Below are positions 1 through 21,893 of a stretch of DNA of 24,089 nucleotides, piece after piece. The number at the start of each line of letters is the position of its first letter. Position 1 is the first letter of the stretch. The stretch is from Anaerolineae bacterium (GTDB lineage Bacteria; Chloroflexota; Anaerolineae; S140-20). The notes beneath the pieces were generated by a model, which was not told the origin of the DNA, did not search any database, and saw only the letters and a list, made by a program, of their open reading frames with translations. The translations under genes were made by a program, and so were the position numbers. The DNA lies in the NCBI GenBank assembly GCA_027021705.1, contig JALUTT010000153.1, positions 1-24,089 of the forward strand, in the 5' to 3' direction.

Positions 1-1
1 G

Positions 2-118
2 TGCCCGCTGGAGTTGGCCGGCTACGACATCAGCCAGGTGCCGATGGCTTCCCTTTGCGCCGGCCTGAGCGTTGTCTGGCCTTTGGAGGCAACTCAGAAT
101 GATGTCCCAAACTCGTGA
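2..118 (+). CDS. Possible 3' end of a gene entering from the left edge (partial, function unknown)
   Basis: Open frame from position 2 (CPLELAGYDISQVPMASLCAGLSVVWPLEATQNDVPNS*) to TGA at 116-118. Early codons are GC3-rich. Too short to assign. Confidence 0.3.
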   Translation, partial: CPLELAGYDISQVPMASLCAGLSVVWPLEATQNDVPNS

Positions 119-137
119 CGGTCGCCCCAGAAACCTA

Positions 138-165
138 TTGCTATTCCTGACGTTTGTGGTATAAT
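138..165 (+). promoter_or_regulatory. Sigma70-type promoter with extended -10
   Basis: TTGCTA (138-143), 16-nt spacer, TATAAT (160-165) preceded by TG at 157-158 (TGnTATAAT). AT-rich patch in a GC-rich context. Confidence 0.65.
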
Positions 166-555
166 TCCGCGCGGGTTTTGCGCTACGGACGGATCAGGAT
201 GCTCCCTGGAACCGAGATGGGGTGGCGAGGGAGCGGCTGACAATAGGAGTGACGGGCAATGTTGGAGAAAGAGGATCCCCTATCTAGGGTTGGGCCGGCC
301 CAACTGGCGGGCCGGTGGATGTCGGGACCACCGCCGAGATCGAGCTGCCTTCGGACTCGCCCCACGATCTTCTCCCCGCTGATCTTGCCACTGCCTGTCC
401 CCACGGTTCTGCCCACCGCTCCCCGGTGGGATGTGAAGAGGGCCACTTTTCTCTCCCCTAAGCTTACCCAACGGATTGAGCCCAACCGCCGGGTGCCTCG
501 TGCGCCGAGGGCTCCCTTTGCTCAGGCTCTGACGGCCAACGCGCAGGGCGAATGA

Positions 556-599
556 GGCTCTGACGCAGGGTCTGGCCTGCGTCGGGCCCTTTTCCCTTT
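556..599 (+). terminator. Intrinsic terminator-like hairpin in the leader upstream of the opine dehydrogenase gene (possible attenuator)
   Basis: GGCTC(T)GACGCAGG (556-569) pairs with CCTGCGTCGGGCC (576-588), followed by CTTTTCCCTTT. It lies ~75 nt before the start codon at 675. Confidence 0.55.
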
Positions 600-674
600 C
601 CAGGCCGACCTGTGAACCGTTGCGCGTTGCCGATGAGGGCGTTGTGGTCATGTTTCATCGAGGAGGTGAGGAAG

Positions 675-1979
675 ATGCGAGGATCAAGGGAAACCGAGAC
701 GCCATATCGTGAGGCCGTGCCCCAGACCTGGTCCACCGGTCCTGGGGACGAGGACCTGCAGGTCACCATCTGCGGGGGGGGCAATGCCGCCCATCTGTTG
801 GCCGGCCTGCTCTCCACCCGTCCGGGACTGCGGGTCAACGTTTACGCCCCCTACGGCGATGAGGCCCAGCGGATGCGCCAGGGCATCGCCCGTCGTGGGG
901 GGATCGTCGTGGTTGCCGCCGAGGAGCGGTGGGCGGGACGTCCCCACCGGGTCAGTGCCGATCCAGCCCAGGTGGTGCCCGGTTCGGGGTTGGTGATGCT
1001 GGCGCTGCCCGCCTTCGCCCACGAGATCGTCCTGCGCGACATCGCACCCTACCTGGACGAGGGGGCCTGGGTGGGCGCCCTTCCCGCTCGGGGCGGCTTC
1101 GATTGGTGCGCCTTTGACGTCCTGGGGGAGAAAGGGAGTTCGCTGATCCTCTTTGGCCTGCAGACACTGCCCTGGGCTTGCCGCCTCCGCACCTACGGCG
1201 AGGAGGTGGCGCTCCTGGGGACGAAGAAGCGGGTGGACCTGGCCACTTGGCCGCCCCACTATGCCGGCAAGGTAGCCCGTCGGCTGAGCGACCTCCTGGG
1301 GGTGCGCCTGCAGCCCATCCCCAACTTCCTGAGCATCACGCTGGCCAACACCGGGCAACTGATCCACCCCGGTGTGATGTACGGGATGTTCCGGAATTGG
1401 GATGGTCACCCCTACGCCAAGGCCCCCCTCTTCTACCAGGCCGTGGACGGCCCCACTGCCCAGATCCTGCAGCAGCTGAGCGACGAGGTCCAGACCCTGC
1501 GGGAGGTGCTGGAGCACCGCTTCCCCCATCTGGACCTCTCGGCGGTGCGCCCCTTGGACGAGTGGCTGCGGGAGTCGTACCGGGACACCATTACCGATCC
1601 CTCGACGCTCCAGAGCTGCCTGGTCACCAACCGCAGCTACGCCGGCCTCAACGTTCCGATGCGCCGCGCCGATGACGGGCTGGTGCCGGACTTCCGGGCC
1701 CGCTACCTCTCGGAGGACGTGCCCTACGGCCTGGTCGTCACCCGGGGCATCGCCGAACTGGCCGGCGTCGCCACGCCCACAATGGACCAGGTGATCGGCT
1801 GGGCCCAGGCCCGTCTTGCCCGGGAGTACCTGGTCAACGGCCACCTGCAGGGGCGGGACCTGGGGGCTTCCCGTGCGCCCCAGCGCTACCATCTGGAGAC
1901 GCTGGAGGCGGTGGTCAAGGGTCAGGAAGAGGTGCCCTCTTACGTCCTCCCGGCGGCCCGGGTGCCGGTTCAAGCCTGA
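675..1979 (+). CDS. NAD(P)-dependent opine (octopine/nopaline) dehydrogenase family protein, 434 aa
   Basis: Rossmann motif VTICGGGNAAH. Family motifs QTLPWACR, LIHPGVMYG, PLFYQ and RYLSEDVPYGLV...TPTMDQVIGWAQ. Start moved from 612 to ATG 675, which follows RBS AGGAGGTG (661-668). Confidence 0.9.
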   Translation: MRGSRETETPYREAVPQTWSTGPGDEDLQVTICGGGNAAHLLAGLLSTRPGLRVNVYAPYGDEAQRMRQGIARRGGIVVVAAEERWAGRPHRVSADPAQVVPGSGLVMLALPAFAHEIVLRDIAPYLDEGAWVGALPARGGFDWCAFDVLGEKGSSLILFGLQTLPWACRLRTYGEEVALLGTKKRVDLATWPPHYAGKVARRLSDLLGVRLQPIPNFLSITLANTGQLIHPGVMYGMFRNWDGHPYAKAPLFYQAVDGPTAQILQQLSDEVQTLREVLEHRFPHLDLSAVRPLDEWLRESYRDTITDPSTLQSCLVTNRSYAGLNVPMRRADDGLVPDFRARYLSEDVPYGLVVTRGIAELAGVATPTMDQVIGWAQARLAREYLVNGHLQGRDLGASRAPQRYHLETLEAVVKGQEEVPSYVLPAARVPVQA

Positions 1980-2015
1980 CGGGCGCCAAGGGGAGACGGG
2001 CCAGCGCTGGAGGCC

Positions 2016-2055
2016 CGGGGAGGGGCGCCGACCGTGCCCCTCCCCGATAACTTTT
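2016..2055 (+). terminator. GC-rich hairpin downstream of the opine dehydrogenase gene (weak terminator or mRNA stabiliser)
   Basis: CGGGGAGGGGC (2016-2026) and GCCCCTCCCCG (2036-2046) form a perfect 11-bp stem, followed by ATAACTTTT. Confidence 0.45.
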
Positions 2056-2065
2056 GTTAGGCGAA

Positions 2066-2173
2066 GTAACGGTTCACCCTCCCGCAGGTTAGGCGCGTTT
2101 CCGACGCGAAACCGTAGGTCAAATAGCCCATCGGGGCTGAGAGCGCCCTCGACCGGTGACCTGCGGGAGGGTA
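2066..2173 (+). repeat. REP-doublet/MITE-like inverted-repeat element, copy 1 (97-bp core 2076-2172)
   Basis: ACCCTCCCGCAGGT (2076-2089) and ACCTGCGGGAGGGT (2159-2172) are perfect 14-bp inverted repeats around a 69-bp spacer. Reverse complement of 7041-7148 with 7 mismatches over 108 bp by manual alignment. Confidence 0.85.
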
Positions 2174-2241
2174 GGCTGAATAGATACGGCGCGAATTGGC
2201 TTCTTGTGCCTTGCAACTTGCAACCAAAACGAGGTAGGACG

Positions 2242-5200
2242 ATGACGAAGGACAACGGACGACCCAAGGAAGCAGCAGCAGCCGAGGATAAGCCTCCAGA
2301 ACCCGGACGGAAGCGGCGGGTGATGGTAGGGGCCATCGGCAAGTGCGTGCACAACCTGGGCGTGGAAACCTTTGCCGACTGGATGGAGGACCAGGGGCTG
2401 GGCTACGTCTCCGTCAAGCTGGGGCCGGCCGTTCCCATCCGGGAGGTGATCAACAAGATTCGGGAGGCCCGGCCCGAGGTGGTGGGCGTCTCGATGCGCC
2501 TGGGCGACCTGCACGTGGACCGACTGATCGGAGAGTTCATCGAGCTGGCGACCCGGTACGGTCTGCACCCCCGCGATAGCGGCATCCGCTACGCCTTCGG
2601 CGGGCTGCGGCCGGCGGCCAACGTGGTGCGGGCGATGACGGGGTTGCCTCTAGAGCCGGATCGCTTCACCCGCGAGGAGGAGCAGCATTACGACCTGGAG
2701 GCGCTGGCCGAGGCCTACCGGGACCGGACCTCCTTCCAAGGCTTCTTCGAACTGGTGGCCGATGACTTCATCACGATGGAAGAGCTAGAGCGCTTCGCCC
2801 ACGAGCTGCCGCCGGCCCACCAGGAGGGGCCGATGGCCTGGTCCGACAACCTGGTCGAGCGCATCCGGCAGGTGCAGGAGCGGGAGAGCCGCCCCGCCAT
2901 CCGGGCCCACATCGGCATCGCGGCTGAGACGATCGGCCCTACCATTGAGGCCGTCCAGAAGCTGGCCGACGCCGGCGTGCTGGAGATCGTCTCCCTGGCT
3001 CCCGACCAGACCTCCCAGGAGCTCCTGGCCAAGTTCATCCGGGGCGAGGAGGACCCAGACCGCTACCTGGCTGGCCAAGGTGGGGCTCCCATCCGCAGTG
3101 TCGAGGACCTGAAGCGGCTGAAGGCAGCCACCCGGCGGGGCAATCACCCCCTCACCCGCATCTACACGGGCACCGACGAACTGCTGGAGCTGGCGAGGCT
3201 GTGGGAGGAGCACCTCAACATCGCTTTCCCGGCGGTGCCCATCTTCTTCTACAACGAACTGGACGGGCGGGGACCGCTCAGCATCCGGGACGCCTTCGAC
3301 GAGCACTTCCGCGTCATCGAGTGGTGGGCTCAGCAGGGCAAACCCCTGGAGATCAACGATCCCCACCAGTGGGGGCTCCGCTACGCCAGCGACGACATGC
3401 AGGTCACCGACCACGTCCTCTGCGCCGTGATCGCCCTGAAGAAAGGGATCCGCCACTACGTGATGCAGATGATGTTCGAACTGCCGCCGACCATCTCCGC
3501 CTTGGACGATCTGGCGAAGATGAAGGCGGCCTACGAGCTGATCGAGCCCCTGACCCGCCACTTCGACTTCCACATCATCCGGCAGACCCGCTCCGGCCTG
3601 CCCAGCTTTCCCCCCAACCTGAACCAGGCCAAGGGCCACCTCGCCTTCGGCGTCTATACCCAGCTCTACATGGAGCCCGACATCCTCCACGTCGTCACTC
3701 ACTCGGAGGCCCACCATGAGGCGACGGCCGAGGACATCATCGAGGCCTGCGAGATCGTCCACCAGGTTTGCTGGGACTTCGCCAAAGGGGCCGTGCCCGA
3801 CATCTGGGCCGATCCGGTCCTGAAAGCTCGCAAGCGGGAACTAAAGGAAGGGGCGATGTACAATCTGCTCCACGGAGCCATCCTGGGCGGTTACGTCGGC
3901 CCCATCACGCCGGAGACCTTTTGGGCCTGGGCCCGGGAGCCGGAGGAGGACCCGGAGCGGAACTTCGGGACGATGCTTCTCAGCTTCATAGACGAGGCCA
4001 ACTACCTGACGGGCACCTGCGGCCTCATCGCCGCCGATACGCTGGACCTGGGGCTCCAGATCGGCCTCTACCAGGGGCCGCACATCACCGTGGTGGACCG
4101 ACGCTACGAGCTGGCGGGGGGCTGCCGCACCAAGGTGGTGGATGGGATGTGTCGCATCGAGGCTTGGAACGGCATCCCGGTGGGCAGCGAGTTCGAGCGG
4201 GTGGACCTGGTGCGCCAGCACTTCCCCTGGTACTTCGACCGGGAGATCAGCCACGCCGAACACGTCAGTTTCATCGCCGACGACGCCGAGGTGGAGCGGC
4301 TGGACGAGGAGACGGTGGCCCAGTTCCGTAGAGGGATCGGCGTCACCGGGCTGGCCGACGAGCGGGTCCTGGTGGTGGATTTTGGAAGCACCTTCACCAA
4401 GATCGGCCTCTTTGACACCCGGCAGGAGACCTTCGAGTTGCGCTACGTGCCCACCACCGTGGAGGACATCCGCATCGGGCTGGCCCACGGGCTGGGGGTG
4501 CTGGAGGCCTGTCGGGAGCGGGGCGACTGGAAGCCGCTGGCCCAGAAGATGGACGAGTTCGCGGTGCGGCTCCCCTGCTCCAGCGCCAAGGGAGGGCTCA
4601 AGGTCGCCACCGTGGCCTTGGTCAAAGAGGAGTCCGGCTTCGCCGCCGAGCTGGCAGCCCTGACGGCGGGGGCCAAGCTGGTGGGCAGCTACGAGGGGCC
4701 GTTGACGCCGGAGCAGGCCCGGGCCATCTACGAGGTGGACCAGCCGGAGATCATCCTGCTGGCCGGCGGCACCGACCAGGGGGGCGACGCCGAGACCCAA
4801 CTCCACAACGCCCGGATGCTGGCGGAGGCGGCCCGCTACGCCACCTACACCGACTACGGCGTGCCGGTGGTCTACGCCGGCAACCAGGACGTGCGCGGAC
4901 AGGTGGAGCGCATCTTCCGCGCCCACGGTGTGGACGTCCGCGTGACGCCCAACGTGATGCCGGAGATCAACGAGTTCCACATTGAGGCGGTCAACGAGGC
5001 CCTGCGGGAGCTCTTCCAGACGGTGATCATCCGGGCCAAGGGGTTCGATGTCGTCGAGGCCTATATGGATGCTCCCTTCATCCCCACCCCTCGGGCGGCC
5101 TTCCTGGGGATCAACCTGCTGGCCCAAGGGTATGGCAGCGAGGAAGGGTTGGGCAACATCCTGGCCCTGGACATCGGCGGCGCGACGACGGACTTCTACT

Positions 5201-5970
5201 CCCACGTTGCCGACAACCCCCTCTACCTCTTCCCCGGCGACGATCCCCGACGCCGGGTGAAGCGGACGATCCTGAAGACGCCCAACACGCCTCTGGTCTA
5301 CCGGCGGGTGGAGGGGAAGTACGGCCTGAGCTACAACGCCGAGAACGTGAAGGAGTTGAGCCGCTTCCAGGACGGGTCGCTGGCCCGGGACCTGAGCCGC
5401 TACCTGGCGCGCCGGTTCCCTCTGGAGTTCGGGCCGGGTCACGACCAGTTCCGCCGCTTTGTGCGCAGCGACAACGGCTCGTACCGGGTGGACCTGGACC
5501 GTTACCTGACCTGGCTCAGCGAGAACCCCCACACGGTGCCCCGGACGGCGTTGGAGAACGCCGCCCGTTCCTTCCTGGCCCGGGAGATCATGGCGGTGAC
5601 GACGCGCAAGCACGCCGGACGGGTGGAGGAGACGGAGGCCTACTTCTTCCAGTACGGCGTCAACTTCTTCAACCAGCCGGTGACGGTCCTGCTCATCGGC
5701 GGGACCATCTACCACAAGTACCGCGATCGGGAGCCGGGCTATGAGGAGGACCTGGCCCTCATCGCCGGCGGCGTGCTCTACAATCCCGAGGAACCGGAGG
5801 TGCTGCGCCCCACGGGGCCGGTGCTGATGGATGCCCGCTACCTGGTCAGCATCCTGGGCGGGCTCTACGGACGGGTGAACCCGGAGCAGGCGCTGCGGGT
5901 GATGAAGCGGGAGCTGGTGCCGCTGGAGGTGGGAGTGCCGGTGCAGGAGCGGGTTCCTGTAGCGGCGTAG
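2242..5970 (+). CDS. Cobalamin-dependent mutase-like protein fused to a GlmL/MutL-family (ASKHA ATPase) reactivase domain, 1242 aa
   Basis: N-terminal B12-binding Rossmann domain: CVHNLG (2344-2361, a DxHxxG variant), VGVSMRL, YAFGG. Central alternating beta/alpha region, probably a TIM barrel. C-terminal GlmL/MutL motifs DFGSTFTK (4378-4401), CSSAKGGL, ILLAGGTD, VYAGN, NVMPE, IPTP, DIGGATTD and RRVEG. Start ATG 2242 follows GAGGT. The ORF-track extension to 1816 overlaps the upstream gene and a repeat. Confidence 0.85.
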   Translation: MTKDNGRPKEAAAAEDKPPEPGRKRRVMVGAIGKCVHNLGVETFADWMEDQGLGYVSVKLGPAVPIREVINKIREARPEVVGVSMRLGDLHVDRLIGEFIELATRYGLHPRDSGIRYAFGGLRPAANVVRAMTGLPLEPDRFTREEEQHYDLEALAEAYRDRTSFQGFFELVADDFITMEELERFAHELPPAHQEGPMAWSDNLVERIRQVQERESRPAIRAHIGIAAETIGPTIEAVQKLADAGVLEIVSLAPDQTSQELLAKFIRGEEDPDRYLAGQGGAPIRSVEDLKRLKAATRRGNHPLTRIYTGTDELLELARLWEEHLNIAFPAVPIFFYNELDGRGPLSIRDAFDEHFRVIEWWAQQGKPLEINDPHQWGLRYASDDMQVTDHVLCAVIALKKGIRHYVMQMMFELPPTISALDDLAKMKAAYELIEPLTRHFDFHIIRQTRSGLPSFPPNLNQAKGHLAFGVYTQLYMEPDILHVVTHSEAHHEATAEDIIEACEIVHQVCWDFAKGAVPDIWADPVLKARKRELKEGAMYNLLHGAILGGYVGPITPETFWAWAREPEEDPERNFGTMLLSFIDEANYLTGTCGLIAADTLDLGLQIGLYQGPHITVVDRRYELAGGCRTKVVDGMCRIEAWNGIPVGSEFERVDLVRQHFPWYFDREISHAEHVSFIADDAEVERLDEETVAQFRRGIGVTGLADERVLVVDFGSTFTKIGLFDTRQETFELRYVPTTVEDIRIGLAHGLGVLEACRERGDWKPLAQKMDEFAVRLPCSSAKGGLKVATVALVKEESGFAAELAALTAGAKLVGSYEGPLTPEQARAIYEVDQPEIILLAGGTDQGGDAETQLHNARMLAEAARYATYTDYGVPVVYAGNQDVRGQVERIFRAHGVDVRVTPNVMPEINEFHIEAVNEALRELFQTVIIRAKGFDVVEAYMDAPFIPTPRAAFLGINLLAQGYGSEEGLGNILALDIGGATTDFYSHVADNPLYLFPGDDPRRRVKRTILKTPNTPLVYRRVEGKYGLSYNAENVKELSRFQDGSLARDLSRYLARRFPLEFGPGHDQFRRFVRSDNGSYRVDLDRYLTWLSENPHTVPRTALENAARSFLAREIMAVTTRKHAGRVEETEAYFFQYGVNFFNQPVTVLLIGGTIYHKYRDREPGYEEDLALIAGGVLYNPEEPEVLRPTGPVLMDARYLVSILGGLYGRVNPEQALRVMKRELVPLEVGVPVQERVPVAA

Positions 5971-5992
5971 AGGTCGAGAGGGGGCCATCACG

Positions 5993-6028
5993 GAACAGGC
6001 CGGGCGTGAGCGCCCGGCCTGTTCTCTT
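5993..6028. terminator. Hairpin between convergent genes, likely (bidirectional) terminator
   Basis: Perfect 14-bp stem GAACAGGCCGGGCG (5993-6006) / CGCCCGGCCTGTTC (6011-6024) with TGAG loop, followed by TCTT on the + strand. Confidence 0.75.
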
Positions 6029-6035
6029 AAGGCGG

Positions 6036-6965
6036 TCATCGGCCTGCGGGCTGCCACTGGGGATGGATGTCATCGGCGGGGTGGTTGGTGAGGCGGATTG
6101 GGTTGGAACCGTCAGCATTCATCACGTAGATCTCGGGGTTGCCATCCCGGTCGGAGACGAAGACGATCTTCGAGCCATCGGGGGACCAGGCGGGATCGCC
6201 ATCGTTGGCCGGATTGCGGGTGATGTTGGTCAGCGTCCCATCGGCCAGATCGAGCAGGTAGATCTCCATATTGCCCTCCCGGTCGCTCATGAAGGCGATC
6301 TTTGAGCCGTCAGGCGACCAGGCCGGGTTCATATCCTGAGCCGGGTTGTTCGTCAGGTTGACTTCGGTGTGGTCAGGCCCCAGGACGTAGATCTCGGGAT
6401 TCCCATCGCGAACGCTCATGAAGACGATGGATTGCCCATCGGGAGACCAGGACCCGTACATATCGAGCCCCAGTTGGCTGGTGCGGCGGGTGAGGTCACG
6501 GCCATCAGCCCCCACCGTCCACAGCTTCGTGTTGGCCGTCACCTCGATGCTCCCCCCTTCGGTGGGCTCGTAATAGGTGCGGTTGGAGGAGAAGAGGATC
6601 TGGGAGCCGTCGGGCGACCAGGCCGGCACCACGTTGAACCCGATCCCATCGGTTAGGCGGGTGGTCTCCGTCCCATCGGCCTTCATCACGTAGATGTCCG
6701 GGGAGCCCTCCCGTTCCGAGGTGAAGGCGATCCGCTGACCATCGGGTGCCCAGCTCGGTGTCCCGTCATAGGCTGGGTTGTTGGTCAGGTTCACCAGGTT
6801 GGAACCGTCGGCGTCCATGATGTAGACCTCGGCGTTGCCATCGCGGTAGGACTCGAAGGCGATCTTGCCGAGGGGGACCGTTGAGGAGCGGCATCCCACC
6901 GCCGTGGAGAGCAGGGCCGCGGTCAGCAGGAGGGTGCAGATTTGGAGGCATCGTCGAATGTCCAT
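6036..6965 (-). CDS. TolB-like beta-propeller (PD40 repeat) lipoprotein, 309 aa
   Basis: Six repeats of the type PxWSPDGxxIxFxSxRxGNxEIY. Signal peptide ends in lipobox AVGC. Start ATG 6965 follows GGGAG. It lacks the TolB N-terminal domain, so no gene symbol is given. Confidence 0.85.
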   Translation of the reverse strand: MDIRRCLQICTLLLTAALLSTAVGCRSSTVPLGKIAFESYRDGNAEVYIMDADGSNLVNLTNNPAYDGTPSWAPDGQRIAFTSEREGSPDIYVMKADGTETTRLTDGIGFNVVPAWSPDGSQILFSSNRTYYEPTEGGSIEVTANTKLWTVGADGRDLTRRTSQLGLDMYGSWSPDGQSIVFMSVRDGNPEIYVLGPDHTEVNLTNNPAQDMNPAWSPDGSKIAFMSDREGNMEIYLLDLADGTLTNITRNPANDGDPAWSPDGSKIVFVSDRDGNPEIYVMNADGSNPIRLTNHPADDIHPQWQPAGR

Positions 6966-7040
6966 AGGGCTCCCTAAAACGGTTCGGCCCGGCGGCCTGC
7001 CGGGCGCCCGGGCCGGAGGGTGGCTCGACGGGGATAGGGA

Positions 7041-7148
7041 TACCCTCCCGCAGGTCACCGGTCGAGGGCGCTTTCAGCCCCGATGGGCTGTTTGAAGCAC
7101 GGTTTCGCGTCGGAAACGCACCTAACCTGCGGGAGGGTGAACAGTTAC
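7041..7148 (-). repeat. Inverted-repeat element, copy 2 (97-bp core 7042-7138)
   Basis: Same 14-bp inverted repeats (7042-7055, 7125-7138) and 69-bp spacer. Near-identical reverse complement of 2066-2173. Confidence 0.85.
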
Positions 7149-7161
7149 GAAGGTCGTGGGG

Positions 7162-8196
7162 CTACTCCCCCCGTAGTCGGGGGTCGAAGGCGTCGCGGAG
7201 GCCATCGCCCAGGAAGTTGAAGGCCAAGGTGGTGAGCGTCAGCGCCAGGGCCGGCACGAAGACTTCGTGGGGGTAAGTCCGCAGCGCCTGATAGGTCTCC
7301 GAGATCATCAGCCCCCAACTGGGGGTGGGCGGGTTGACGCCCAGGCCGATGAAGCTGAGGAAGGCTTCCAGAAAGATGTAGCCGGGGATGGCCAGGGTCT
7401 CCGCCACGATGCAGGGGCCCAGGATGTTGGGCAGCAGATGGCGGAAGATGATGCGCCGGTTGGTGGCTCCGACGGCCCGGGCTGCCTCGACGAATTCCTT
7501 TTCCTTGTAGGAGAGGGTCTGGCCGCGGGCGATGCGGGCCATACCCAGCCAGTTGACCAGGCCCAGGGCGATAAAGAGGAAGAACATCCCGCCCATCGCC
7601 TTGTCAATGTTGATGAAGAGATTGGCGATCCCCCCACCGCCACCTCGCCGGGAGAGGGCCTTGAAGTAGACCTGCATCAGGATGATGAAGATGATGAGAG
7701 GGAAGCCATAGAGGAAATCCACGAAGCGCATCATCAGGTTGTCCACGCGGGTGCTGGAGTACCCTGAGATGAGGCCGTAGGTGATGCCCACGACGAGGCT
7801 CACGAAGGCCGCCACGAAGGCCACGGAGAGCGACACCCGGGTGCCATACAGCGTTCGGCTCAGGATGTCACGGCCCAGGTAATCCACGCCCAGGAGGTAG
7901 AACTTGCCGTCCTCGGTCCGGGTGAAGAGACCGGTATCGTGGTAGCGGAAGTTGACCTCGGCGAAGTGATAGGGAGCCAGGAGGGGACGGACCTCTCCAC
8001 CGGTGAAGAAGGCGATGACGGTGGTATCGGCGAAGATGGCGACTAGAACGAGGAGGATGAGGAAGATGCCGCTGATGACGGCGACGCGGTTCTTCAAAAG
8101 CTGCCGGCAGGCATCGGCCAGGGGACTGCGCCCACGCCGGACGGCCTCCTCCAATCGCAATTGAGCTACCTCTTGCGGTGTCGCTTCAGCAGCCAT
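7162..8196 (-). CDS. oppC: Oligopeptide/nickel-family ABC transporter permease (OppC type), cluster A
   Basis: LGVDYLGRDILSR, EAA loop EFVEAARAVGA, RHLLPN, LSFIGLG..PPTPSWG, C-terminal GDGLRDAFDPR. Confidence 0.92.
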   Translation of the reverse strand: MAAEATPQEVAQLRLEEAVRRGRSPLADACRQLLKNRVAVISGIFLILLVLVAIFADTTVIAFFTGGEVRPLLAPYHFAEVNFRYHDTGLFTRTEDGKFYLLGVDYLGRDILSRTLYGTRVSLSVAFVAAFVSLVVGITYGLISGYSSTRVDNLMMRFVDFLYGFPLIIFIILMQVYFKALSRRGGGGGIANLFINIDKAMGGMFFLFIALGLVNWLGMARIARGQTLSYKEKEFVEAARAVGATNRRIIFRHLLPNILGPCIVAETLAIPGYIFLEAFLSFIGLGVNPPTPSWGLMISETYQALRTYPHEVFVPALALTLTTLAFNFLGDGLRDAFDPRLRGE

Positions 8197-9300: not shown

Positions 9301-11226
9301 CTACTTGCCCATAGCCGCCTTCTTGGCCTCCCAGTCAATCTTCCACTTCCAGATGTGGAGCCGACCGGGGTCACCCCAGACCCGATCCAGCCACGGCTTG
9401 CCGACGGCGACACGGGTGTAGTAGTAGATGGGGGCGATGCCTACGATCTCGTCCACGAAGAGCCGCTCGGCCTCCTTGTAGAGCTCCTTCTGCTTCTCCG
9501 GATCGGGCTCGACCTGGGCCTGCTTGGTCAGCTGGGCGAACTTCGCCACCGCCTCGCCAACCTGGGGGTCATCCTCGCTGATGAGAGGCTCGTTGGCCCC
9601 CTCGGTGGGATGGAAGACCTCGTGGATCCAGTTGTTGGCGTGCGGGTAGTCGGCGCACCAGCCCAGCCGATAGACGTTGGGCTTGTCCTCCAGCGGGCTT
9701 TCCCGATCAATGGTCTTCAGGTAGACCCGCCACTCCTGGGTCTCGATGGTGACGTTGATCTTCGGGTAGGCGCTCTTCCACATTGCCTGGATGGCCTGGG
9801 CGATCCGGGCGTGCCCCTCGCTGACGTTGTGCATCAGCAGGATGTCCAGCCCCTCGCCGTCGGGGTAGCCGGCCTCCTCCAGGAGCTTCTTGCCCTCGGC
9901 AACGGCCTTCTCGTAGCCCCAACCGCCCATATCCTCCGGCAGTGCCCACGGAGCAATGTCGGGATCGAGGGCCGGGGAGCCGAAGTTCAGGGGGTTGGTG
10001 AAGGCGTTGGCCGGGATCTGCCCACCCTTGGTCACCGTCTCGACCAAGGTCTTGCGGTCAATGCCCATCGAGAGCGCCTTGCGCACCCGGACATCATCCG
10101 TGGGCGGCTTCTTGGTGATGAAGCCGTAGTAGTAGGTGCAGTTGATGGGCGTGTTGACGAACTCCTTGCTGAGCTGCGGGTCCGCCTTCACCCGCTCGAT
10201 CTGGTCCAGCGGCACACCTGCCGTGTCCAGCTCGTTGTCCTCGTAGAGGGCGAAGGCCGTCGAGGCTTCTTCGATCATCACACCGTAGACCTTCTCGATG
10301 TTCCCGGCCTCGTCGGCAAGCTCCTCCCAGCCGTACCACAGCGGGTTCTTCTCCAAGGTCAGGTGATCGCCGTGGACCCACTCGGTCATCACGTATGGAC
10401 CGTTGGTCTGGATGAAGCCCGGCTCGATCCAGCGCTCACCCTTCTCCTCGATGATCCACTGGGGCATCGGGCGGGCGATCCACATGCTGGCGATCTGCGG
10501 GAAGAAGCCGGCTCCGTACTCCAGGGTGAACTCTACGGTGAAATCATCCACGGCGCGGACCCCCACAGCATCGTAGAGCTCCTGGAAGTTCTCCGCCTCC
10601 GGATCGGCCATGTTCAGGTCCGCGCAGCCCTTGACAATGTAAAGCACATAGGCGTAGTCGGAGCCGGTGCGCGGGTCGCAGGTGCGCTTCACGCCGTAGA
10701 CCACGTCGTGGGCGTTCACAATGCGGACGTTGCCTTCATCGTCAGTGACTTCCTCGACCTGACCGGTGGTGGGGTCGTAGCGCACCCACGGAACGTCGTT
10801 GCGCATCTTGAAGGTCCAGACTGTCCGGTCCTCGTTGGAAGACCACTCGGTGGCCAATTCGGGGATGGCCTCCATCGTCTCGTCATCGAGGTCCGTCAAG
10901 CCCAGGAAGAGCTCCTCGATGACGCCCACCGAGGTGGTGTCCGTCGCCAGAGAGGGGTCCGCCGTCGGGGGCTCGGTGCCCCAGTTGATGTTCAGGGTCA
11001 CCTTCTCCTCGCCGGGGACCGGGGTCGGGGTGACCTCGACGATCTTCTCGACCTCTTTCTCCACGATCTTGGTGACGACCACTGTGGCACCTTCCTTCTC
11101 TACCACCTCGGTGACCACAACGGTCTCCTTGACGACCTGGGGCGTAGGCTGAGCGCAGGCGGAGAGGACCACGCTGGCGATGACCACGAAAGCCCAGAGG
11201 GTCAACCACCTTCTTCGAGCAAGCAT
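9301..11226 (-). CDS. oppA: Oligopeptide ABC transporter substrate-binding lipoprotein (family 5), cluster A
   Basis: Lipobox LSAC, V/E/K-rich linker, PELATEW, TNGPY, CTYYY, RVRKALS..IDR, RLGWCADY. RBS GGAGGAGG. Confidence 0.92.
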   Translation of the reverse strand: MLARRRWLTLWAFVVIASVVLSACAQPTPQVVKETVVVTEVVEKEGATVVVTKIVEKEVEKIVEVTPTPVPGEEKVTLNINWGTEPPTADPSLATDTTSVGVIEELFLGLTDLDDETMEAIPELATEWSSNEDRTVWTFKMRNDVPWVRYDPTTGQVEEVTDDEGNVRIVNAHDVVYGVKRTCDPRTGSDYAYVLYIVKGCADLNMADPEAENFQELYDAVGVRAVDDFTVEFTLEYGAGFFPQIASMWIARPMPQWIIEEKGERWIEPGFIQTNGPYVMTEWVHGDHLTLEKNPLWYGWEELADEAGNIEKVYGVMIEEASTAFALYEDNELDTAGVPLDQIERVKADPQLSKEFVNTPINCTYYYGFITKKPPTDDVRVRKALSMGIDRKTLVETVTKGGQIPANAFTNPLNFGSPALDPDIAPWALPEDMGGWGYEKAVAEGKKLLEEAGYPDGEGLDILLMHNVSEGHARIAQAIQAMWKSAYPKINVTIETQEWRVYLKTIDRESPLEDKPNVYRLGWCADYPHANNWIHEVFHPTEGANEPLISEDDPQVGEAVAKFAQLTKQAQVEPDPEKQKELYKEAERLFVDEIVGIAPIYYYTRVAVGKPWLDRVWGDPGRLHIWKWKIDWEAKKAAMGK

Positions 11227-11320
11227 TTCCTCCTCCTCCTTTGGGTTACAGGGTAGGCGAAAGGAACAGCAGCAAGGCGACTATCCTCGGCTCGGTCCTT
11301 TCCCGCGATAGTGAGCAGGC

Positions 11321-11333
11321 ATCACCTCCTTTC
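11321..11333 (-). promoter_or_regulatory. Stand-alone extended Shine-Dalgarno-like element upstream of oppA
   Basis: The - strand reads GAAAGGAGGTGAT, complementary to the conserved 16S 3' tail (AUCACCUCCUUUC). It lies ~95 nt upstream of oppA, which has its own RBS. Confidence 0.55.
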
Positions 11334-11388
11334 CTGGTTTGTGCTCAGACTGTGCGCATCGGGTTTTCCGGGGGCCACCGGGCTGGTC

Positions 11389-12381
11389 TCACCCGGCCAG
11401 GTGGCAGGCGACCCGATGGCCTGAGGCCACCTCTTTCAGTTCCGGTTCCACCTCGAAGCAGACCTCCATCGCCACCGGACAGCGGGTGCTGAAGTTGCAG
11501 CCCCGAGGCGGATTCGCCGGACTGGGGACATCGCCTTCCAGGATGATTCGCTCCCGCTTTTCCTCGATGACCGGATCCGGGATCGGCACCGCCGAGAGCA
11601 GGGCTTGGGTGTAAGGGTGCAGGGGGTTGGTGTAGAGGCTGTCGCGGTCCGTCAATTCGACGATCTTTCCCAGGTACATCACCGCCACCCGGTCGCTGAT
11701 GTGGCGCACCATGCTCAGGTCGTGGGCGATGAACAAGTAGGTCAGCCCAAACCGCTCCTGCAACTCCTCCAGCAGGTTCACCACCTGGGCCTGGATGGAG
11801 ACATCCAACGCCGAGATCGGCTCGTCGCAGACGATGAAGTCGGGCTGCAAGGCCAACGCCCGAGCGATTCCGATCCGCTGGCGTTGGCCGCCGGAGAACT
11901 CGTGGGGGTAGCGGTTGATGAAGTAGGGGTTGAGGCCCACCAGTTGGAGGAGTTCCTGAACCCGCTCCCGCTTTTCTTTGCCGCGTGCCACCCCGTGCAC
12001 CTCCAGGGGTTCGGCGATGATGTTGCCCACGGTCATCCGAGGGTTGAGGGAGGCATAGGGGTCCTGGAAGATCATCTGCATCCGGCGGCGCATCCGCCGG
12101 AGGGCGTTGCCCTTGAGTTGGACGAGGTTGACGCCGTCGAAGAAGACCTGGCCGGCGGTGGGGCGGTAGAGTTGGAGGATGGTCCGGCCGGTGGTGGACT
12201 TGCCGCAGCCGCTTTCTCCCACCAGGCCCAGGGTCTCGCCCCGGAAGATCTCGAAGGAGATGCCGTCCACGGCCTTGACATCGCCGATGTGGCGTTGGAA
12301 GACGATGCCCCGGGTGATGGGGAAGTACTTTTTCAGCCCTTCGACGCGGACGAGGACATCACGACCGTTCTTATCGGACAC
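11389..12381 (-). CDS. oppF: Oligopeptide/dipeptide ABC transporter ATP-binding protein (OppF type), cluster A
   Basis: Walker [10 protein letters not shown], signature FSGGQRQR, Walker B FIVCDEP, HPYT, Cys-rich C-terminal domain. GTG start. Confidence 0.93.
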
Positions 12382-13369
12382 GGGACCACACCCCTTCCGT
12401 TTGGGTCTTTTCCCAGCAGGCGACCCGGTGGGCGTCGCCGACGGGTTCCAGGGCGGGATTCTCGTGGAGGCAGCGCTCGGAGGCGTACCGGCAGCGGGGG
12501 GCGAAGGGGCAGCCTGGGGGAGGGGCGACGAGGTCGGGGGGCTGCCCTGGGATGGAGAGGAGGCGGGTGCCGGGCGCTTCGTCGAGGCGGGGGAGGGAGC
12601 CGAGGAGGCCGATGGTGTAGGGGTGGCGGGGGGAGCCGTAGAGTTCCTTGACGGGGGCCTCCTCGATGATGTAGCCGGCGTACATCACGATGACCCGCTG
12701 GGTGAGCCGAGCGACGACGCCCAGGTCGTGGGTGATCCAGATGACGGCCATACCCAGCTTTTCCTGGAGGCGCTTGACCAGGTCAATGATCTGGGCCTGG
12801 ATGGTGACGTCGAGGGCGGTGGTGGGCTCGTCGGCGATGAGGAGCATCGGGTTGCAGGAGAGAGCCATCGCGATCATCGCCCGCTGACGCATTCCGCCGG
12901 AGAACTGGTGGGGGTAGTCGTCGAGGCGCTCCCGCGCCTGGGGGATGCCGACCATCGTGAGGAGTTGGGCGGCGCGGTCGCGGGCCTCCTTGTCGCTCAT
13001 CCCTTGGTGGAGCTTGAGGGCTTCGGTGATCTGGAAGCCGACGGTGAGGACGGGGTTGAGGGAGGTCATCGGGTCTTGGAAGACCATAGCGATCTCGGCC
13101 CCTCGGACCTGGCGCATCTCCTCGTCGCTGAGGCGGAGGAGGTCGCGTCCGTAGAAGAAGACCTGACCGTCTACGATCTTGCCTGGGGGGTCGGGGATGA
13201 GGCGCATCAGGGAGAGGACGCTGACGCTCTTGCCGCAGCCACTCTCGCCGACGATGCCGAGGGTCTCGCCCTCGTCCAGAGAATAGGAGATGCCGTTGAC
13301 GGCGTGGACGACGCCGTCCTGGGTGTAGAAGCGGGTGGTGAGATTGCGAACCTCCAGAAGGCTGGCCAA
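12371..13369 (-). CDS. oppD: Oligopeptide/dipeptide ABC transporter ATP-binding protein (OppD type), cluster A
   Basis: [50 protein letters not shown]. Probable TTG start at 13369 after GAGGAGG. Confidence 0.93.
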
Positions 13370-13595: not shown

Positions 13596-15053
13596 TCATC
13601 GCCATTCCTGGCCTGTGAGGGCTTTGTACGCCGCTCGAACCTGCACATCGGGGATCTCGCGGAGGCCCCATGTCCCCAAGGGCACCCGGATGTCCGGCTG
13701 GACGCCCACGCCCTCCAATGTGCTCCCATCGGGCAACTGGAGCGTGGAGACGGCCAGGCGGATCAGGGAGCCGTCGGGGAGGCTGAAGCCGGTGATCCCC
13801 TCGGTGTTGCCGGCCGTCGGCATCCCGACCAGGACGGCTCGCCCCGACTGTTGCATCGCCGTGGCGAAGTACTCGGAGGCGCTGTGGCTGTTTCCATCAA
13901 TGAGCACGGCCACCGGCGTTGTCTCGTTCCAGCGCACCGGCCCCCGAATGCGGTAGATGGTCTGGGTCGCATCCTTGCGCAAGGGACCGACCTTGCCGAA
14001 GACCCCGCTGGTGAAGATGGCGATGGAGCGGTCGGCATTCCCTCCTGGGTTGTGGCGGATGTCCACGATCAGGCCATCCAACGGCTGTTCCTCTTCCAGC
14101 AACTGGATGGCCTGGAGGATGTTCACGTCGGCGTCTCCGCCGAAGTCGGGCACCCGGATGTAGCCGATGCGAGGGTTCTCGCTCAGCAGGCCATACCGCC
14201 ATCCATCGCAGCCGGCCACCGCCCCAAAGCGCAGGCGGATCTCCTCGGGATCTCGGTCCGGCCCCCGCTGCACCGTGAGCGTGACCGCCTCGTGATCTCC
14301 GTACAACGCCTCACGGATAGAGGGCCAGTCGAAGCCTTCTTCGGAGCGGACCACGGGCTGGCCGTTGATGGCGAGGACCACGTCGCCCCGCTGAAGGCCG
14401 GCCTGGGCCGCCGGCCCGATCTCGCAGACGTACCAGATCATCAACTGCTCGTCCTCCCGCGCCGGCCAGATGATCAGCCCGGCTGCAGGGCGGCCCGTCC
14501 GCTCTTCCGGCGGTGTCAACTCGAATTCGACGGCGAAGCGGTCAGGGCGGACGAACCGACTGTGGTCATCGCGCAGTTCGGCGATGAAGGCTTCCATCAG
14601 GTCCCAAAAGGCCTCCTGGCTCTGAACCGCTTCCACCTGGGGCAGGTACGCCTCCCGCACTGCGTCCCAGTCCACGCCGTTGAAGTTGTCCCGCACGTAG
14701 TTGTCCTTGACGATCTGCCACGCCTTCTCGAAGATCGCCACGTAGTCGCCGGCCGCTTCAGGCCCGCCGACGGACGTCGGTGTGGGCGTCCGGGTGGGGA
14801 TGACCACGGCGGTGAGGAGGGCCTGGGCCGTCGCCCGAGGACCGGTGAGCGGTTTGGGCGTCGGGGTGTCCGTTGGGCCTGTCGGTGCAGGGGTGGCCGT
14901 CGCCTCCGGGGTGGCGATGGGAGCCGTCGCCGTCTCCGGGACCATCTCAGCCGTGGGAGAGGGGGGAGCCTCCGTTGGCGTTGCCTTGCAGCCTCCAACC
15001 ATCAGCACCAGCACGCCTCCCCATATCACAATGAAAGCAGCCAACCGTTTCAT
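13596..15053 (-). CDS. S41-family peptidase lipoprotein with PDZ domain, 485 aa
   Basis: Lipobox VGGC and P/T/A-rich linker. FNGVDW, DDHSRF, PDZ motif PAAQAGLQRGDVVLAING, IGYIRV, DIRHNPGG, SHSASE, EGVGVQPDI. RBS GAGGAGA. Confidence 0.88.
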   Translation of the reverse strand: MKRLAAFIVIWGGVLVLMVGGCKATPTEAPPSPTAEMVPETATAPIATPEATATPAPTGPTDTPTPKPLTGPRATAQALLTAVVIPTRTPTPTSVGGPEAAGDYVAIFEKAWQIVKDNYVRDNFNGVDWDAVREAYLPQVEAVQSQEAFWDLMEAFIAELRDDHSRFVRPDRFAVEFELTPPEERTGRPAAGLIIWPAREDEQLMIWYVCEIGPAAQAGLQRGDVVLAINGQPVVRSEEGFDWPSIREALYGDHEAVTLTVQRGPDRDPEEIRLRFGAVAGCDGWRYGLLSENPRIGYIRVPDFGGDADVNILQAIQLLEEEQPLDGLIVDIRHNPGGNADRSIAIFTSGVFGKVGPLRKDATQTIYRIRGPVRWNETTPVAVLIDGNSHSASEYFATAMQQSGRAVLVGMPTAGNTEGITGFSLPDGSLIRLAVSTLQLPDGSTLEGVGVQPDIRVPLGTWGLREIPDVQVRAAYKALTGQEWR

Positions 15054-15158: not shown

Positions 15159-16943
15159 TCAGAAGGCTGCGTAGACCAGGACGCCGTAGACCGCCAGGGT
15201 GAGCACCCCGTCAACGGCAGCGTAGATGAACAGGAAGAAGAGGAGCGATGGTTGCTGACGACGGTAAGTATACCCCCAAGCGGTCAGGAAGGCCAGGCCC
15301 GTGAGCAACGGAGGCACGCCCCAGCGCAGGATGGGGGCCAGCCAGGGGGGGATGAAGGGGATCCAGGCGGAGAAGGGCACGTAGTGGCGTATGCCGGGCA
15401 GGATGGCCAGCTTCCCAGCCCAGTAGGCGGCCAGGGCGAGGGTCAAGCTGATGAGGACACCGGGGCTGAGCAGCCGTTCCTCCCTCCGCCAGATCGCCGA
15501 GGTCAGACCCAGCAGGAGCATCGGGGGGATCAGCCAGACGAAGATGAGGGGGAAGAGAAGGGCTCCTGTCAGCAGGCCGAAGAGGGTCTCGACGCTGAGC
15601 CGTCCCACGTCCTCGGGGGTCAGTGGGCGCAGGGCCGACCGCATCTCGGGAGCTGTGCCGGCGAGGTAGACGGGGAACCCCGACGGCTCCCTTCCCTCCA
15701 GCCAGGTTGCGTAGAGGTAGCCTTCGGAATCCCTCGACAGCGCCGGGTGTTCCGACCGGACGGAGGTGAAGCTGAGAAGTTGATAGGCCACGGGGGCGCC
15801 CTGTTGGAAGAAGAGGAGCCCCACCTGGCCTCGCTCCTTGCGCATCAGGTAGGGCAGCCGGGCGTGGAAGGCGATGGCCAACTCCCGACCGGGGGAAGGG
15901 ACAACGGCCACTTCGGTCACATAGGCGACGCCCCGCTGTCCGGTCCCCCAGGGCACCCGGTCGCCGGCTTTCAGTTCTCCCCCGGGGAAGGGGCGGTAGG
16001 TGAGATGGTAGTCGGCGGGGACCGTCAGCGCCTGGGCGGGGGATGCCCGGTCGGGCTGACCGGGAGGGAAGTGGACGTAGCTGGTCTCGGCCCGGCCCGC
16101 CTCCATGCCTGTGCGCACGATCACCGTCCAGAAGAGGTAAACCCCCTCCTGGCTCACCCCCAGCCGGGGGCCTTCCAGCACGCCGCCGACCCCCAGGGAG
16201 ATCTCGCGGACCGAGACGGGCTGGACCGGGTGGTCGGCCTGCCGAGGATAGGCAGCGTAGAGCAACGCGATGGTGCCGTAGCCGGGGGGGTAGTGCAACC
16301 AGACGCTGTGCAGGGTGCCCTCGGCATCGTACTGGAGATCGGGCCGAATCCCCTCGGGGTCCATCAGCGTCGGCTCTCCCTCCGGGTTGTCGGGCGGGAG
16401 GGCGTAGAGGCCCGGTGACCGACGGGATCCCGAATACCAGACGGCGATGCGCCCTTCGGAATCGCTGGCGACGTCGTAGGCCCCTACCCGTACCTCACCG
16501 GAGAGGAGAGCCGGGGGCTCCAGCAGCTCCCCATCGGCGGTCAGCCGGGCGTGATAGAGCCGCCAATCGCTCAGCCAAAAGAGATGAAGCCCCTCCCCCG
16601 ACCAGAGCAGACGGGGTTGGTCCAGCCACTTCAGGGTGATCGCTTCGTAGGTGCGATCCCACAGGACCTCGGCCCGTCGGTCCAGGGCGATCACACGGGG
16701 GTGAAGGCGATCCTCCCGGCCTCCCGTCAGCAGGAGGTACAACCTGCCCTCACCATCGGTGGCGATGGGCACGGGATCGCCGGTTTGGGTGTGACCGACC
16801 CATTGGGCTCGGCTCCATCCAGGGGCGTTGAGCCACAACCGCTCCGGCAGCCCGGCGCAGGCCGTCAGGAGCAACGTCAGGAGCAGAACACCGACCCCGG
16901 CGAGGAAGGGGGGGGCTGTGGGGCAGCCGCTTGATGGTTTCAC
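15159..16943 (-). CDS. Hypothetical membrane protein: N-terminal lipoprotein-like signal, large extracytoplasmic beta-rich domain, ~5 C-terminal TM helices
   Basis: Co-directional ORF with GC3 bias, LLLTLLLTAC lipobox-like segment and hydrophobic C-terminus. Start uncertain (GTG 16943 after GAGGT, or ATG 16991). Confidence 0.7.
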   Translation of the reverse strand: MKPSSGCPTAPPFLAGVGVLLLTLLLTACAGLPERLWLNAPGWSRAQWVGHTQTGDPVPIATDGEGRLYLLLTGGREDRLHPRVIALDRRAEVLWDRTYEAITLKWLDQPRLLWSGEGLHLFWLSDWRLYHARLTADGELLEPPALLSGEVRVGAYDVASDSEGRIAVWYSGSRRSPGLYALPPDNPEGEPTLMDPEGIRPDLQYDAEGTLHSVWLHYPPGYGTIALLYAAYPRQADHPVQPVSVREISLGVGGVLEGPRLGVSQEGVYLFWTVIVRTGMEAGRAETSYVHFPPGQPDRASPAQALTVPADYHLTYRPFPGGELKAGDRVPWGTGQRGVAYVTEVAVVPSPGRELAIAFHARLPYLMRKERGQVGLLFFQQGAPVAYQLLSFTSVRSEHPALSRDSEGYLYATWLEGREPSGFPVYLAGTAPEMRSALRPLTPEDVGRLSVETLFGLLTGALLFPLIFVWLIPPMLLLGLTSAIWRREERLLSPGVLISLTLALAAYWAGKLAILPGIRHYVPFSAWIPFIPPWLAPILRWGVPPLLTGLAFLTAWGYTYRRQQPSLLFFLFIYAAVDGVLTLAVYGVLVYAAF

Positions 16944-17003
16944 AAAGACCTCGGAGGTCCAAGCCCGTTCTCTAAGGGGCCTCCTGGCCATCTGACGGTG
17001 TCC

Positions 17004-17123: not shown

Positions 17124-17759
17124 TCAAGGGGCCTCCGTGCTGATGTTGTCCGCCGGAACCCATCCTTGACCGGTTGGGGCGTCAATGCGATACCACAGTT
17201 GACCTTCGTGCTCAACGACCTCCAGGATGGTGACGGCAGCGCCCCGCTCCTGGTTGGCGATGATGCGTTTGCTCCCCGGCGCATCCACCAGGTTGATCAG
17301 AAAGCCCTTGCCGGTGAGGTAGACCGTCTCTCCTGGCTGGGGGCCTTCCGCCGCGCTGGGGCCGGTGGACTTCAGGAACTTGGCCGGCACCCATCCCTCC
17401 CCGGCTGCGCTCTTGACCAGGTACCAGACCTCGCCCTCGACTTCCCGAGAGCCCAACACCGTTGCCTGATCCCCCCGACCGGCGAAGGAGAAGGGGGAGA
17501 CGTCACCGGGTTCCTTGCGCAGGGGGATCAGGAACTCGGTGCCGGTGAACTCGACCGTCTCGTTCACCTGGAATTCCGCCCCCCTGGCCGTGGAGGGAGC
17601 GGATCCAGCCTCTCCCTCTTGGGCCTGTTGGGCTCGGGCTGTGGCCTCCTCCGGGGTCAGGATCTCCCCCGTTTGACAGGCGATACTTGCCAGCAACAGG
17701 AGGGCCAGGACCCACCTCAGGGCCATTGACGATTTCACAGGATCACGATGTTTGGCCAT
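17124..17759 (-). CDS. Lipoprotein with two bacterial SH3-like repeats, 211 aa
   Basis: Lipobox SIAC. Two repeats end in WYLVKSAAGEGWVPAKFL and WYRIDAPTGQGWVPADNI (SH3b-like WY...GWV). Starts 3 nt after the oppC stop. Confidence 0.75.
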   Translation of the reverse strand: MAKHRDPVKSSMALRWVLALLLLASIACQTGEILTPEEATARAQQAQEGEAGSAPSTARGAEFQVNETVEFTGTEFLIPLRKEPGDVSPFSFAGRGDQATVLGSREVEGEVWYLVKSAAGEGWVPAKFLKSTGPSAAEGPQPGETVYLTGKGFLINLVDAPGSKRIIANQERGAAVTILEVVEHEGQLWYRIDAPTGQGWVPADNISTEAP

Positions 17760-21817: not shown

Positions 21818-21893
21818 TTCCTCCTCCTTTGGGTGTTAAGAAGAAAGCACAGTGGCAAGGCGATCGTTCTCGGCACGGTCTTCTCTTCCAGGC

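Follow-up and report, generated by a model that had tools for sequence, protein, structure and literature searches.

Two adjacent genes on a 24,089-base contig of an Anaerolineae bacterium (contig C153, analysed whole and called the window here) encode an opine dehydrogenase (ODH; gene 1) and a single-chain protein made up of a likely B12-binding domain, a central part that seems remotely akin to the GlmE barrel of glutamate mutase, and a GlmL/MutL-type ATPase domain (gene 2). Both lie in the same direction, as an earlier note on this DNA had claimed, in a genome of 5.19 Mb that is 94.9% complete and 65% G+C; related records carry the labels Anaerolineae or Chloroflexota. This work demonstrates that such mutase-like proteins are accompanied by ODHs across distant branches of their family, and a functional link between the two is strongly supported. 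The two genes are best explained as one metabolic module of a GlmE-type mutase and an ODH which, in the subfamily with the fused architecture, would run in the direction of breakdown, a reading that we regard as evenly poised between right and wrong.

Conservation of the pairing and of its operon

Among 8,000 candidates, 435 proteins matched the fusion protein at E <= 0.001; the best 120 of these share 73-99% identity with the N-terminal region of the query (residues 1-710), and are mostly 1,198-1,284 amino acids (aa) long, with a few of 693-1,040 aa. Counts for the fused form refer to 52 genome loci related to the window's fusion protein. An ODH gene adjoins the fused gene in 44 of them, directly upstream in 35 and directly downstream in nine, the match at one locus (L017) being only a 78-residue piece. 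Six of the eight loci lacking an ODH are cut off on the side needed, while another (L012) has no upstream ODH and its downstream flank is absent from the locus. The gaps between the ODH and fusion genes of these relatives are estimated to range from approximately -27 to 241 nucleotides (nt).

In the mutase tree the fused genes constitute one clade (support 100), inside which the nine with a downstream ODH form a nested clade (support 100), and the ODH of this nested clade is only 27% identical to that of the window. Hence the partner has been exchanged for a distant paralogue, with the pairing itself retained.

The association extends beyond the fused form. An unfused paralogue of 612 aa is encoded on another contig of the window's genome (C109), approximately 42-44% identical to the fusion protein in genome searches (34.6% over 619 aa by tblastn), and is directly followed by a second ODH. 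This unfused form was found in 25 of 401 sampled genomes of the phylum, and an ODH follows it in all 21 loci retrieved (20 fetched, plus the window genome's own). A still more distant clade, approximately 30% identical to the window protein and found with a four-sequence alignment in 75 metagenome loci, has an ODH within 4 kb of the mutase in 53; only two of the remaining 22 loci have full 4-kb flanks on both sides. The earlier note had made the clustering of homologues in other genomes the test of its proposal, and they do cluster, in the fused form and in both of these more distant mutase clades. On contig C109, the second module (L054:11855-15925) consists of a radical S-adenosylmethionine (SAM) gene, the unfused B12/GlmE-like gene, a clade-B ODH and then a NUDIX gene, the radical SAM neighbour being peculiar to the window's genome (1/21 loci).

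The mutase, in either form, is widespread: of the 301 genomes sampled from the window's class, 112 carry it (E <= 1e-30), approximately 23 of them as the fused form (a count by hand from rows), and the family was found also in gut, rumen and digester metagenomes. Canonical GlmE was found in only three of 151 sampled genomes of the class. Where a genome has the unfused form alone, MutL is encoded by a gene of its own at a distance of 24-30 kb; the window's genome encodes a second MutL gene, on contig C87.

The fused form also has a conserved operon, in which an RpiR regulator, the ODH, the fused mutase, an Opp-type ATP-binding cassette (ABC) importer and a C45 hydrolase follow one another in the same direction. 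Counting the 52 loci and the window, the fused mutase is present in all, the RpiR regulator (HTH_6 + SIS) in 40, the SBP_bac_5 binding protein in 38, the two permeases in 31 and 28, the two ATPases in 28, and the C45 Ntn-hydrolase in 25. The binding protein is as similar to peptide binders as to those for agrocinopine and nickel. No ligase or glycosyltransferase belongs to this conserved operon. With its RpiR regulator, ABC importer and C45 hydrolase, and lacking a ligase, the operon of the fused subfamily therefore looks like one for uptake and catabolism, and reads better in that way.

The pairing itself is not new. In 2009, Zhang, Rodionov, Gelfand and Gladyshev (BMC Genomics 10:78; PMC2667541) predicted a B12-dependent family in 11 genomes that was “always adjacent” to a pfam02317 dehydrogenase, with a D-Ala:D-Ala ligase and an asparagine synthase nearby. 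Its N-terminal distant B12-binding domain, its pfam02317 neighbour and its Chloroflexi hosts make it the same family by description, and its neighbours agree with the contexts of the unfused Anaerolineae form found here. The family of 2009 differs in being unfused, and the part of that paper covered here mentions neither GlmL (with no occurrence of “MutL”), nor a relationship to GlmE, nor an operon of the RpiR/ABC/C45 kind. What is new is the operon architecture of the fused form, its dispersal in the window's genome, the make-up of the 262-nt gap between the two genes, and the tying of the partner ODHs to enzymes assayed in 2024. The earlier note's statement that no characterised pathway combines an opine dehydrogenase with a B12 mutase still stands, as none was found in the literature; the search retrieved no paper on an opine dehydrogenase in Anaerolineae, and only irrelevant matches for adenosylcobalamin together with opine.

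Sequence signatures of the two proteins

Gene 1 has every feature expected of an opine dehydrogenase: the Octopine_DH domain (Pfam PF02317, 119.6 bits, E 1.6e-34, cut-off 30), the Rossmann motif Gly-x-Gly-x-x-Gly/Ala in the form GGGNAA, the catalytic His-Asp dyad and the arginine. Residues 29-418 match the octopine dehydrogenase (OcDH) of the scallop Pecten maximus (PDB 3c7a) at E 1.7e-88, and the CENDH/ArODH of Arthrobacter sp. 1C (1bg6), a further characterised relative, matches at 9.9e-16. The similarity to the scallop enzyme is full-length, and its catalytic His212, Arg324 (the “sensor”), catalytic Asp329 and Trp278, residues whose roles are described in PMC2924402 and PMC10787698, align with His231, Arg343, Asp348 and Trp297 of the window ODH. 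The two enzymes differ at the Pecten residues Glu142, replaced by Gln163, and Gln118, replaced by Arg139. As Glu142 is the holder of arginine's guanidinium, and glutamine takes its place in all 35 of the 35 ODHs adjoining fused mutases, the window ODH is predicted not to be an arginine-specific (octopine) enzyme. Separately, the scallop enzyme is a far nearer relative of the window ODH than are the bacterial ODHs of the other clade that accompanies this mutase family (27% identity), which prompts one to ask how animal opine dehydrogenases and the window ODH's clade are connected.

The specificity of these enzymes can be approached through the six hot-spring ODHs studied by Telek et al. in 2024 (PMC10787698), which prefer L-Asp, L-Glu, cysteate, homocysteate and 2-aminopimelate, with pyruvate and NADPH. 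This preference is set by an arginine at the position of ArODH residue 111 and a glycine at that of residue 198, and double mutants swap specificity (PMC10787698). Arg139 and Gly227 of the window ODH occupy the equivalent positions, and the same Arg/Gly combination is present in all 54 partner ODHs from genome loci. Among the partners from the distant clade, 42 of 44 have Arg and the other two Lys at the first position, and all 44 have Gly at the second, such that the Arg(Lys)/Gly pair is found in all 98 partner ODHs examined. The partner ODHs consequently bear the acidic-substrate signature of the Telek type, with the activity itself predicted.

Two of the assayed enzymes, which have this same specificity pair, appear to be orthologues of partner ODHs, judging by eye from the supplement of PMC10787698: mODH-45 is approximately 75-80% identical to the ODHs encoded behind the unfused mutase, and mODH-582 approximately 55-60% identical to those of the fused subclade with a downstream ODH. 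The supplement gives E8MYZ6 and A0A7V4ZEF3 as their nearest homologues in UniProt. The window ODH differs in being only approximately 27% identical to the mODH-45/mODH-582 group, and closer to scallop OcDH. On L-Asp, mODH-582 has a KM of 24.8 mM and a kcat of 0.9 per s (PMC10787698), and this poor efficiency suggests that the natural substrate of the partner ODHs is probably another acidic amino acid, for which the adjoining mutase is the obvious source or sink. The genes of Telek et al. were recovered from reads, and the neighbouring mutase goes unmentioned in the sections of the paper covered.

The N-terminal domain of gene 2 appears to be a B12-binding Rossmann fold, with a Cys-x-His-x-x-Gly motif. 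Its Pfam score of 28.3 bits lies under the 32.1 cut-off; a profile of the family, compared with the PDB, retrieves corrinoid-binding domains (best E 3.3e-07), and nothing for the rest of the protein. Of 52 family members, 48 retain His37 of the cobalamin motif, 47 retain Ser84 and 50 retain Gly121; at position 35, 31 have Cys and 17 the canonical Asp. At the other end of the chain, the ATPase domain scores 302.3 bits against PF13941 and has DFGSTFTK and DIGGATTD motifs in its translation. It falls below the cut-off of TIGR01319 (197.2 vs 204.05 bits) and far below that of the NCBIfam GlmL equivalog (285 vs 475), placing it, by these models, in the GlmL/MutL family and outside the equivalog.

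A relationship of the central, catalytic part to the GlmE barrel is suggested by relatives. PF06368 is matched by seven of 52 family members, of which P0130 exceeds the cut-off (27.5 vs 26.6), as does an unfused relative, at 32 bits; the language-model look-alikes of this part include methylaspartate-mutase clusters (score 0.85, a lead only). The reference system is the glutamate (methylaspartate) mutase of Clostridium, comprising GlmS/GlmE and GlmL, or MutS/E/L (PDB 1cb7, 1ccw, 1i9c, 6h9e). The window protein has in common with it an ATPase of the GlmL family and, putatively, a B12 Rossmann domain with a His ligand, a GlmE-related barrel and an acidic residue where Glu171 would lie. It differs in holding in one chain all three parts that are separate in Clostridium, in its Cys-x-His-x-x-Gly motif in place of Asp-x-His-x-x-Gly, and in having an opine dehydrogenase as its partner, in a genome where methylaspartase was not found. 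Gene 2 would be a GlmE-like enzyme whose pocket is probably unlike that of glutamate mutase, and its identity as a B12 radical mutase is something we infer. Two other classes of enzyme were considered and set aside: a pyridoxal phosphate-dependent aminomutase, as there is no Pfam match of that kind, and a B12-radical-SAM enzyme, as the translation has no Cys-x3-Cys-x2-Cys motif.

Direction and substrates of the proposed module

The product of gene 2 would be a single-chain adenosylcobalamin carbon-skeleton mutase of the glutamate-mutase type, equipped with a GlmL-type ATPase of its own, whose probable task is to repair the cofactor or to reload it. The mutase would convert a straight-chain acidic amino acid to a branched one and back, as with glutamate and 3-methylaspartate or a close analogue, and the ODH would couple that acidic L-amino acid with pyruvate at the expense of NAD(P)H, or split the resulting N-(1-carboxyethyl) opine. 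In the fused subfamily, firstly, a conjugate would be imported by the Opp-type ABC system; secondly, the C45 amidohydrolase would free the imported compound; thirdly, the ODH would cleave the opine into pyruvate and a branched amino acid; and fourthly, the mutase would convert the branched amino acid to an ordinary one.

Several observations weigh against a breakdown module of this kind. At one locus of the 52 (L044), and there alone, both flanks are present and contain no ODH, even at E 10. In the window's genome, the operon is dispersed: its orthologous transporter, 82-86% identical, lies on contig C109, an RpiR query finds no orthologue and only a 29% match on another contig, a C45 query finds no match at E <= 1e-10, and the two genes themselves are separated by a terminator-like hairpin. 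Only the reductive, synthetic direction was measured by Telek et al. (PMC10787698), and 3-methylaspartate was not among the 26 amino acids assayed, with no occurrence in the portion of that paper covered; the assayed enzymes fall outside the window's own ODH clade, and their kinship to partner ODHs is an identity estimated by eye. Relatives of the pair also occur in clearly biosynthetic settings. On the side of the mutase, the window's own catalytic part matches no Pfam family, PF06368 included, at E up to 10. When aligned by hhalign with three canonical GlmE of the same class, it is collinear over 359 columns at an E of only 0.046 and a probability of 1.2%, leaving residue equivalences uncertain. 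Arg66, Arg100 and Arg149 of GlmE are taken here to be its substrate arginines, and Glu171 the holder of the substrate amine. In this low-confidence alignment (GlmE numbering checked against PDB 6h9e), the three arginines correspond to His223, Glu260 and Tyr308, and since none of them is found at its aligned position, free glutamate may not be the substrate. Finally, methylaspartate ammonia-lyase (PF07476) was not found in the 94.9%-complete genome, which therefore appears to have no classical methylaspartate route. Canonical glutamate fermentation was rejected on three grounds, namely the lack of methylaspartase, of a PF06368 match and of the arginine claw. Within the transporter locus on contig C109 (L053:11638-15219 and L054:51-5701), hydantoinase/oxoprolinase B and A genes are inserted between the binding-protein gene (L053:11638-13365) and the permease genes.

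The strongest alternative is that the module is biosynthetic here too, with the mutase supplying a branched acidic amino acid which the ODH would combine with pyruvate. The resulting opine-type polycarboxylate would serve as an osmolyte or to decorate the envelope, and the ABC system would bring in a precursor or recover the product. We consider this rather unlikely for the fused subfamily, even though the wider family offers much that fits it. The unfused Anaerolineae form adjoins asparagine-synthase-like genes (6/21 loci) and DUF2179 genes (5/21), with amidase, D-Ala-D-Ala-ligase-type ATP-grasp, glycosyltransferase and GNAT genes as other neighbours. The distant clade lies in glycan loci, with ATP-grasp_4 in 35 of 75, ATPgrasp_ST in 24, Bac_transf in 13, DegT aminotransferase and aldo/keto reductase in 12 each, glycosyltransferases GT2 and GT4 in 10 and 6, and flippase-like and PGA_cap genes in 4 each. 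A cyclic di-AMP (c-di-AMP) riboswitch precedes the mutase-ODH pair in two of the 20 loci tested. Providencia has O-antigens known to carry opine residues bound to sugars through amide links (PMC10609480), and the enzymes of Telek et al. perform well reductively (PMC10787698). Where ligases and glycan genes accompany the mutase-ODH core, it most likely builds an opine-type acid. The fused operon, by contrast, has no ligase or glycosyltransferase and does have a regulator, a binding-protein importer and an amidohydrolase; Rfam searches found no riboswitch in seven fused loci or in the window. Hence the earlier note's idea of a rearranged amino acid being made into a novel opine, as an envelope building block or osmolyte, fits the distant relatives, with their ATP-grasp ligases, glycan loci and c-di-AMP riboswitches, whereas the window's own subfamily reads as one of uptake and breakdown. 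No relevant riboswitch was found by Rfam in eight unfused Anaerolineae loci. A SAM riboswitch (L100:6767-6873, minus strand, 92.5 bits) lies just downstream of one unfused mutase-ODH pair.

The low-confidence alignment with GlmE also bears on what the mutase might rearrange. GlmE Glu171 aligns with the shorter Asp341, invariant in 52 of 52 family members, and two residues on, where GlmE has Gly, Arg343 is kept in 51 of 52. Arg221 (52/52) and Arg306 (44 Arg and 7 Lys) stand two residues before two of the positions aligned with the GlmE arginines, and Glu489 is at the likely position of GlmE Glu330. Asp341 and Arg343 would leave room and charge for a carboxylate-bearing N-substituent, and with the classical arginine claw not recovered, the mutase might act on the opine itself, the rearrangement taking place in the glutamate-like portion of an N-(1-carboxyethyl) amino acid formed, or subsequently split, by the ODH. 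This is improbable in our view, as an idea drawn from that alignment which the gene context does not separate from a mutase acting on the free amino acid.

It is very improbable that the pair makes a staphylopine-like opine metallophore, with the ODH acting as CntM and the Opp/Nik-type importer taking up the metal complex. The binding protein does score against NikA-type and CntA models (184 and 102 bits, all under cut-off), but it scores equally against peptide and agrocinopine binders, the regulator is of the sugar-sensing RpiR type rather than a metal regulator, and the conserved neighbour clusters include no exporter and, differently from staphylopine-type Cnt loci, no nicotianamine-synthase-like CntL (whose family model was not searched for in the genome). 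The chelator suggested in the earlier note hence finds no support. Equally improbable is an ODH-like protein serving as an NAD(P)H-dependent helper, for example supplying electrons for cobalamin repair: an accessory role would also fit the strict pairing, but the full opine-dehydrogenase catalytic set and specificity pair are kept in 98 of 98 partners, and apparent orthologues catalyse genuine opine formation (PMC10787698).

Layout of the window and meaning for the family

Features of the window, and of two metagenome loci (positions prefixed with the locus)
Feature	Position	Strand	Details
Multi-copy repeat	1..126	none	At contig end; assembly breaks here
Sigma-70-like promoter match	138..165	+	TTGCTA-16-TATAAT; approximately 510 nt upstream of gene 1
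Terminator-like hairpin	567..590	+	Between the promoter match and gene 1
Gene 1, opine dehydrogenase	675..1979	+	434 aa; scallop-OcDH-like clade; ATG behind GGAGGTG ribosome-binding site
Terminator-like hairpin	2016..2046	+	Just after gene 1; 13 pairs, 11 G-C; tail ATAACTTTTG
Dispersed hairpin-forming repeat	2066..2187	none	122-nt copy
Gene 2, fused B12-binding/GlmE-like/GlmL	2242..5970	+	1,242 aa; no internal stop
Candidate B12-binding Rossmann domain	2317..2616	+	Residues 26-124; Cys-x-His-x-x-Gly
Catalytic part, putative remote GlmE-barrel relative	2629..4356	+	Approximately residues 130-705 (about 570 residues)
GlmL/MutL ASKHA-type ATPase domain	4366..5916	+	Residues 709-1225
Hairpin	5993..6028	none	Perfect 14-bp stem between convergent genes; common to gene 2 and the PD40 gene
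PD40 beta-propeller protein	6036..7058	-	
S41/tricorn-type peptidase	13596..15053	-	With PDZ domain
Protein without Pfam match	15159..16991	-	610 aa
SH3 protein	17124..17759	-	
c-di-AMP riboswitch	L119:159-290		106.8 bits; directly ahead of mutase-ODH operon
c-di-AMP riboswitch	L121:1847-1977		93.7 bits; directly ahead of mutase-ODH operon

The contig begins in a repeat that recurs, at 91.98-100% identity (100% in 15 of 23 full-length copies), on more than 20 other contigs, for the most part where these end. A multi-copy mobile element, of which this stretch would be one margin, probably interrupts the assembly a short way before the ODH gene. The single visible promoter claimed in the earlier note was not confirmed: positions 1-7300 contain one sigma-70-like match (138-165), where 0.7 would be expected by chance, and a terminator-like hairpin intervenes between it and gene 1.

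The gap of 262 nt between the genes (1980-2241), in which the earlier note had correctly placed a hairpin and a repeat, begins with a strong terminator-like hairpin, which belongs to the minimum-energy fold, followed by the 122-nt repeat. As the hairpin comes after gene 1, co-transcription of the two genes in the window's genome is doubtful. The repeat is dispersed rather than specific to the locus: the genome contains 179 copies that reach 100 nt or more (approximately 84-95% identity), spread over 81 contigs and including a second window copy at 7041-7148, and none of the 52 related loci has it. It folds into a long hairpin and corresponds to no Rfam family. The hairpin reported beyond gene 2 is likewise present, with a perfect stem and no T-run, the reason that a terminator scan missed it. 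Rfam found no riboswitch in the window at gathering scores, nor at E up to 1 over positions 1-2400, and no cobalamin riboswitch.

The remainder of the window looks like a peptide-scavenging neighbourhood unrelated to the gene pair, with the minus-strand genes of the table interspersed with peptide transporters. A 2.4-kb duplication of 97.5% identity (11054-13453 and 21639-24026) comprises the ATPase gene pairs of two separate minus-strand Opp-like ABC operons. Neither of these two transporters was accepted as that of the fused subfamily's operon, as they are only approximately 36% identical to it, compared with 82-86% for the copy on contig C109.

Taken further, the pair may represent an opine pathway dependent on B12, the first of its kind. 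Its mutase would belong to a new adenosylcobalamin-dependent class and would make or consume a branched acidic amino acid, be it 3-methylaspartate, the N-(1-carboxyethyl) derivative of that compound or a non-glutamate analogue, with the ODH as its sole metabolic outlet. Different lineages would use this core to produce a stress solute or a glycan decoration, and the fused GlmL form would serve to import and degrade the compound. We advance this tentatively, with the chances somewhat against it in so complete a form. Few substrate classes are known for adenosylcobalamin carbon-skeleton mutases, and the mutase family described here is large, occurring in more than a third of the sampled genomes of its class. 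It was flagged as an orphan in 2009, and the link to ODHs assayed on acidic amino acids makes this 17-year-old orphan concretely testable. It could also reveal a novel solute or surface-glycan decoration of anaerobes, together with the route by which others scavenge it.

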